Of a stretch of DNA of 64,000 nt, positions 16,328 to 16,714 are shown one piece after another (position 1 is the first letter of the stretch; each line of letters starts with the position of its first letter). The translations under genes were made by a program, and so were the position numbers. Source of the stretch: Escherichia coli (GTDB lineage Bacteria > Pseudomonadota > Gammaproteobacteria > Enterobacterales > Enterobacteriaceae); NCBI RefSeq assembly GCF_017348835.2, contig NZ_CP071375.1; one strand, given 5' to 3'. Below the pieces are notes generated by a model. That model saw nothing but the letters and a program-made list of their open reading frames with translations, made no database searches and was not told the DNA's origin.

Positions 16328-16714
16328 ATGCGTAAAAGCCTGTTAGCTATTCTTGCAGTCTCCTCGTTGGTATTCAGTTCGGCGTCGTTTGCCGCTGATC
16401 TTGAAGACAATATGGAAACCCTCAACGACACTTTAAAAGTGGTCGAAAAAGCCGATAACGCGGCGCAAGTCAAAGACGCGTTAACGAAGATGCGCGCCGC
16501 AGCGCTGGATGCGCAAAAAGCAACGCCGCCGAAGCTCGAAGATAAATCACCGGACAGCCCGGAAATGAAAGACTTCCGTCACGGTTTCGATATTCTGGTT
16601 GGTCAGATTGACGACGCGCTGAAGCTGGCAAATGAAGGTAAAGTAAAAGAAGCGCAGGCTGCCGCAGAGCAACTGAAAACGACCCGCAACGCCTATCACC
16701 AGAAGTATCGTTAA
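16328..16714 (+). CDS. cybC: Soluble cytochrome b562 precursor, apparently full length
   Basis: 128-aa ORF with signal peptide followed by [20 protein letters not shown]... (the classical cytochrome b562 sequence). Confidence 0.9.

Follow-up and report, generated by a model that had tools for sequence, protein, structure and literature searches.

The open reading frame at 16328–16714 of the window, by which we mean the whole 64,000-nucleotide stretch of Escherichia coli DNA that was analysed (contig NZ_CP071375.1), is almost certainly a wild-type, undamaged cybC gene in the chromosome of an E. coli strain other than K-12, encoding the precursor of cytochrome b562. This reading draws on sequence identity, synteny, conserved ligands and the absence of the lesion found in K-12.

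The cybC gene and its relation to that of E. coli B

The frame lies on the plus strand and comprises an ATG start, 128 codons and a TAA stop, with neither internal stops nor frameshifts according to the list of open reading frames and the sequence itself. Its features are given here by window coordinate.

16315–16321, plus strand: Shine-Dalgarno motif AAGGAAG, read from the sequence, 6 nt 5′ of the ATG; its final base is the first base deleted in K-12.
16328–16714, plus strand: cybC coding sequence, for the precursor of soluble cytochrome b562, identified by Pfam PF07361, PDB matches and 98% identity with REL606 CybC.
16328–16393, plus strand: signal peptide, 22 codons, with predicted cleavage before ADLED; the mature chains 256b and 1apc start at query residue 23.
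16394–16711, plus strand: mature cytochrome b562, 106 residues, a predicted four-helix-bundle haem protein, aligned over its whole length with the PDB chains of 106 aa and with Pfam profile positions 1–102 of 102.
16412–16414, plus strand: codon for Met29 (Met7 of the mature protein), an invariant alignment column.
16430–16444, plus strand: span holding the two codons that differ from E. coli B in codon and protein alignment, ACT Thr35 and GTC Val39 (AAT Asn and ATC Ile in B).
16697–16699, plus strand: codon for His124 (His102 of the mature protein), an invariant alignment column.

The product is a member of the Cytochrom_B562 family, with a match far beyond chance: it scores 114.6 bits against PF07361 (E = 3.9e-33), where the family cut-off is 30 bits, and profile positions 1–102 of 102 are aligned with residues 24–128. 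The 106-residue PDB chains 256b, 1qpu and 1apc align to residues 23–128 (E = 2.4e-63), the native 128-aa chain 9tmp_A aligns to residues 1–128 (E = 1.3e-76), and hundreds of chains of BRIL fusions in PDB match residues ∼5–127. Met29 and His124, which we take from the cytochrome b562 structure to be the axial haem ligands, are invariant in a protein alignment of the window, REL606, K-12 and the 106-aa reference, and the C-terminal end reads NAYHQKYR. Exactly this protein is already public as UniRef W8T6B3_ECOLX, present on at least 1,000 contigs. Three antisense frames overlap cybC on the minus strand (16126–16473, 16470–16631 and 16547–16762), and these we regard as by-products of the coding strand.

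E. coli B is the source from which cytochrome b562 was originally characterised. The gene of the B strain REL606 is full-length (387 bp), and the window gene differs from it at nine nucleotide positions, with no indels. Codon comparison places seven of these differences in the synonymous class, which is consistent with purifying selection, and the other two cause the conservative residue changes N35T and I39V of the precursor (N13T and I17V of the mature protein). Both pairs of residues are on record as natural polymorphisms in E. coli, listed as T35N and V39I (PMC6561927). That paper gives m/z 11783 for the B/ST131-clade-C allele; the mature window protein would be about 27 Da lighter (Asn to Thr about −13 Da, Ile to Val about −14 Da), with a mass of roughly 11.75 kDa. 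The original prediction had called the frame an uninterrupted 128-codon cybC carrying the canonical cytochrome b562 sequence. Alignment with REL606 bears out the intact, full-length frame; the word canonical holds except at the two residues just named. The same prediction took the reference protein to be that of E. coli B, and the REL606 sequence is indeed the same as UniRef C562_ECOLX.

The B protein (UniProt P0ABE7/C562_ECOLX; PDB 256B, 1QPU and 9TMP) is the closest characterised counterpart, likewise made as a 128-aa precursor of a 106-aa mature form. It is identical to the window protein at 126 of 128 residues (98%) and at 104 of the 106 mature ones, the whole of the difference being Thr35 for Asn and Val39 for Ile, with the seven synonymous changes beside them in the gene. 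Its haem ligands are likewise Met7 and His102, its gene is also flanked by pmbA and nrdG, and its signal peptide does not differ, residues 1–22 being the same amino acids in the REL606 precursor. From the 104/106 identity to the 256b and 1qpu chains, the four-helix-bundle fold would be expected to carry over. BRIL, the thermostabilised apocytochrome b562 used as a fusion partner in crystallisation and cryo-EM, derives from the same protein; it is an engineered variant without the native context, and is irrelevant to cybC biology.

Locus, upstream repeat and expression

The neighbouring genes and intergenic features are as follows.

14282–14827, minus strand: yjgA.
14921–16273, plus strand: pmbA (tldE).
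16279–16298, plus strand: GC-rich hairpin with a 7-bp stem, just 3′ of the pmbA stop within the 54-bp pmbA–cybC spacer; RNA fold −14.4 kcal/mol, z = −2.2.
16298–16310, no strand assigned: empty site of a ∼128-bp palindromic dispersed repeat, located by alignment with K-12 and B.
16723–16754, no strand assigned: hairpin with a 14-bp stem in the 44-bp cybC–nrdG gap, from RNA folding.
16759–17223, minus strand: nrdG.
17383–19521, minus strand: nrdD.

The order and orientation of yjgA, pmbA, cybC, nrdG and nrdD are the same in the MG1655 and REL606 annotations, so that cybC, placed between pmbA (tldE) and nrdG and convergent with the latter, occupies the position of the orthologue. All but one of 5,426 complete E. 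coli genomes (5,425) have the 511-bp cybC locus, nearly always as a single chromosomal copy annotated ‘cybC: cytochrome b562’, and other complete genomes carry the identical 511-bp locus under that annotation.

The pmbA–cybC spacer measures 54 bp in the window versus 182 bp in REL606. The difference comes from a ∼128-bp palindromic repeat, missing from the window, that in both K-12 and B separates the pmbA hairpin from the cybC ribosome-binding site (L002:1559–1690 in our REL606 locus record; L001:∼4347–4474 in that of MG1655). The repeat folds as an imperfect palindrome of ∼126 nt forming a long hairpin (−63.8 kcal/mol). It is multi-copy: counting matches of about 70% identity or more, a genome has it at a median of three places. 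Within the window there is no other copy. At the cybC locus it is present in 3,885 of 5,425 genomes (72%), and about 28% are without it, like the window. The repeat looks ‘ERIC-like’, resembling the ERIC/IRU class of intergenic repeats. We do not claim membership of that class, since the similarity to the ERIC1R and ERIC2 primers is only partial (8/9 and 14/18 matches).

Of the two intergenic hairpins, that at 16279–16298 is the only terminator-like match near cybC, and the terminator scan flagged it in the minus orientation only. The one at 16723–16754 is the more stable, at −23.3 kcal/mol (z = −6.6) on the plus strand and −19.6 kcal/mol (z = −4.0) on the minus strand; both MG1655 and REL606 carry it unchanged. 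It probably ends or stabilises the transcripts of cybC and nrdG alike, though neither strand has a U-tract there. An Rfam scan of the whole window found no RNA family at or beside cybC, and we therefore reject a known regulatory RNA in its spacers. Elsewhere in the window the scan gave five matches to naRNA4, a nucleoid-associated noncoding RNA (at 7915–7993, 14156–14233 and 41003–41270, the last being three tandem copies). It also gave matches at 24277–24392, 42104–42298 and 48313–48394, comprising a magnesium riboswitch (125.8 bits, in a part of the window where mgtA is among the annotated genes), a strong match to the Yersinia sRNA Ysr276 (175.4 bits) and one tRNA.

A consensus scan of 16150–16850, reaching 178 bp upstream of the gene, found no sigma-70-like promoter on either strand; the scan is insensitive, being blind to read-through from pmbA and to promoters that depart from the sigma-70 consensus. 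With no promoter found and a spacer of only 54 bp, transcription of cybC in the source strain may come from pmbA read-through or from a non-consensus promoter. In REL606, cybC is among the genes highly expressed relative to MG1655 (PMC3446290), and native haem-loaded cytochrome b562 is made in B-lineage expression strains, with a crystal structure available as PDB 9tmp (PMC13041623). REL606 has the long spacer, and the empty promoter scan together with the unlike spacer of the window could be taken to mean that cybC is intact here but silent, the short spacer without the repeat lacking a promoter and the gene being a cryptic one on its way to decay. We think this very improbable: the short spacer recurs in about 28% of the 5,425 genomes, namely those outside the 3,885 with the repeat, the records sampled retain an annotated full-length cybC, substitutions are mainly synonymous (7/9 versus B), and a scan insensitive to the two routes just named says little against transcription. 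We infer instead that the intact cybC gene is expressed in the source strain.

A more speculative suggestion, to which we give no great weight, is that presence or absence of the repeat is a natural regulatory polymorphism, and that cybC behind a short spacer might be co-transcribed with pmbA/tldE and not be served by a promoter of its own. If so, the polymorphism would lead to lineage-specific levels of cytochrome b562.

The K-12 deletion and what it says of lineage

One further feature sets the window apart from K-12.

16321–16346, plus strand: 26 bp present in the window and deleted in K-12, from alignment, the MG1655 annotation and the junction census.

In an alignment of the window, MG1655 and REL606, MG1655 is without exactly these 26 bp, GTGAGCAATGCGTAAAAGCCTGTTAG, and placement of the gap is unambiguous. 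The deleted segment takes in the spacer between Shine-Dalgarno motif and ATG, the ATG, codons 1–6 and the first base of codon 7. The resulting K-12 junction has ...AAAAAAGGAA joined directly to CTATTCTTGC...; the window is not of this type, the 26 bp being retained. The MG1655 annotation treats cybC (b4236) as a pseudogene that starts precisely at the deletion junction. The statement in the original prediction that cybC is a truncated pseudogene in K-12 was therefore correct, the truncation consisting in loss of the ATG and codons 1–6, and alignment of the window with both this pseudogene and the E. coli B gene revealed no truncation or frameshift on the window side.

The K-12 pseudogene is at the orthologous locus with the same flanking genes, and has Val39 in common with the window. 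It differs in the missing 26 bp, in having the 128-bp repeat upstream, and in Asn35, Ser122 and Lys125. Beyond the 26-bp indel there are 13 substitutions between the window and MG1655 in cybC, and in the neighbours pmbA, nrdG and nrdD there are 30, 7 and 29, respectively (97.8–98.6% identity, or 1.4–2.2% difference). Ser122 and Lys125 of K-12 lie near the haem ligand His124; the corresponding residues are Ala and Gln in the window and in B. Since S122A is listed among natural polymorphisms (PMC6561927), the two K-12 residues are probably an allelic difference and not decay.

The literature agrees. According to a table legend in PMC4361602, soluble cytochrome b562 (CybC) is expressed by strains other than K-12 and is ‘cryptic in K-12 strains’; PMC13041623, citing Trower 1993, refers to loss of CybC expression in K strains. 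Annotation of the remnant is inconsistent. In the K-12 derivative NEB Turbo, PGAP calls a 121-aa ‘cytochrome b562’ CDS (WP_023649327.1; L003:1503–1868 in our locus record) that starts at an ATT codon 2 nt 3′ of the Shine-Dalgarno remnant, and the same remnant is a pseudogene in the curated MG1655 record (L001:4489–4856). Feature names in K-12 derivatives thus conceal the cybC defect.

The census of complete E. coli genomes scored the 5′ end of cybC and overall coverage of the locus. A 112-bp probe was used for the 5′ end, running from the ribosome-binding site through the start codon to codon 31, and the end was called intact where at least 80% of the probe was covered. By this measure 5,070 of 5,425 genomes (about 93%) have an intact cybC 5′ end; the remaining 355 match the probe from position 39 onward only, which is the K-12 pattern. 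A second probe, of 70 bp across the K-12 deletion junction, gave a full match in precisely 355 genomes out of 5,426. The agreement of the two counts implies that each genome without an intact 5′ end carries the K-12 deletion. Six junction-bearing genomes were sampled, ER1709, BW25113, ATCC BAA-196, DH10B, JCL301 and MC4100, all K-12 laboratory derivatives. In this collection the 26-bp deletion seems to mark K-12-type strains. One genome with the K-12 pattern, THB42-F5, is recorded as a dog isolate.

Over 24 kb around cybC the best matches to the window were the pig isolates PE164 and F2_81, at 100%, followed by a group including ATCC 8739 at 99.7%; in the complete-genome search K-12 derivatives were confined to the lowest ranks for the cybC locus. 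ATCC 8739, whose locus appears to have the short layout too, is of phylogroup A, as are K-12 and B, so that the window would not be phylogenetically remote from K-12. That phylogroup placement of the best-matching named genome is what might favour descent from a K-12 relative with a repaired or never disrupted cybC, making the intact gene uninformative on lineage, an idea to which we attach next to no probability in view of the 13 substitutions in cybC, the missing 128-bp repeat, the 30, 7 and 29 substitutions in pmbA, nrdG and nrdD, and the bottom rank of K-12 derivatives for this locus. Assignment of the window to a non-K-12 lineage, which the original prediction had proposed from the intact gene, is supported by these sequence comparisons and by the absence of the deletion. 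As evidence of lineage, however, an intact cybC is a weak marker, since it is the default state in E. coli (about 93%): it excludes K-12 and says little else.

Function and significance

Non-covalent haem b binding and redox activity, with an alpha band at 562 nm, are documented for the B-type protein (PMC13041623). As 104 of the 106 mature residues match that characterised protein, export, haem binding and electron transfer can be proposed for the product of the window gene. The 128-residue precursor would be exported through the Sec pathway, its 22-residue signal peptide being cleaved after Ala22. The mature 106-residue periplasmic four-helix bundle would then take up a single haem b, held non-covalently by the ligands Met7 and His102, and would serve in the periplasm as a small soluble one-electron carrier. 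What cytochrome b562 does physiologically has been described as unknown (PMC6561927), and our literature search for a defined role of the protein found nothing.

The gene is an ordinary and already known one, and the K-12 defect is already documented; the contrast with the K-12 pseudogene is now precisely defined. The census of the 26-bp deletion adds no new biology, and provides a tidy marker for K-12 laboratory strains. With its cybC intact, the source strain should make native cytochrome b562, which has practical relevance only where endogenous CybC disturbs experiments, for example by co-purification with anti-BRIL Fabs (PMC13041623).
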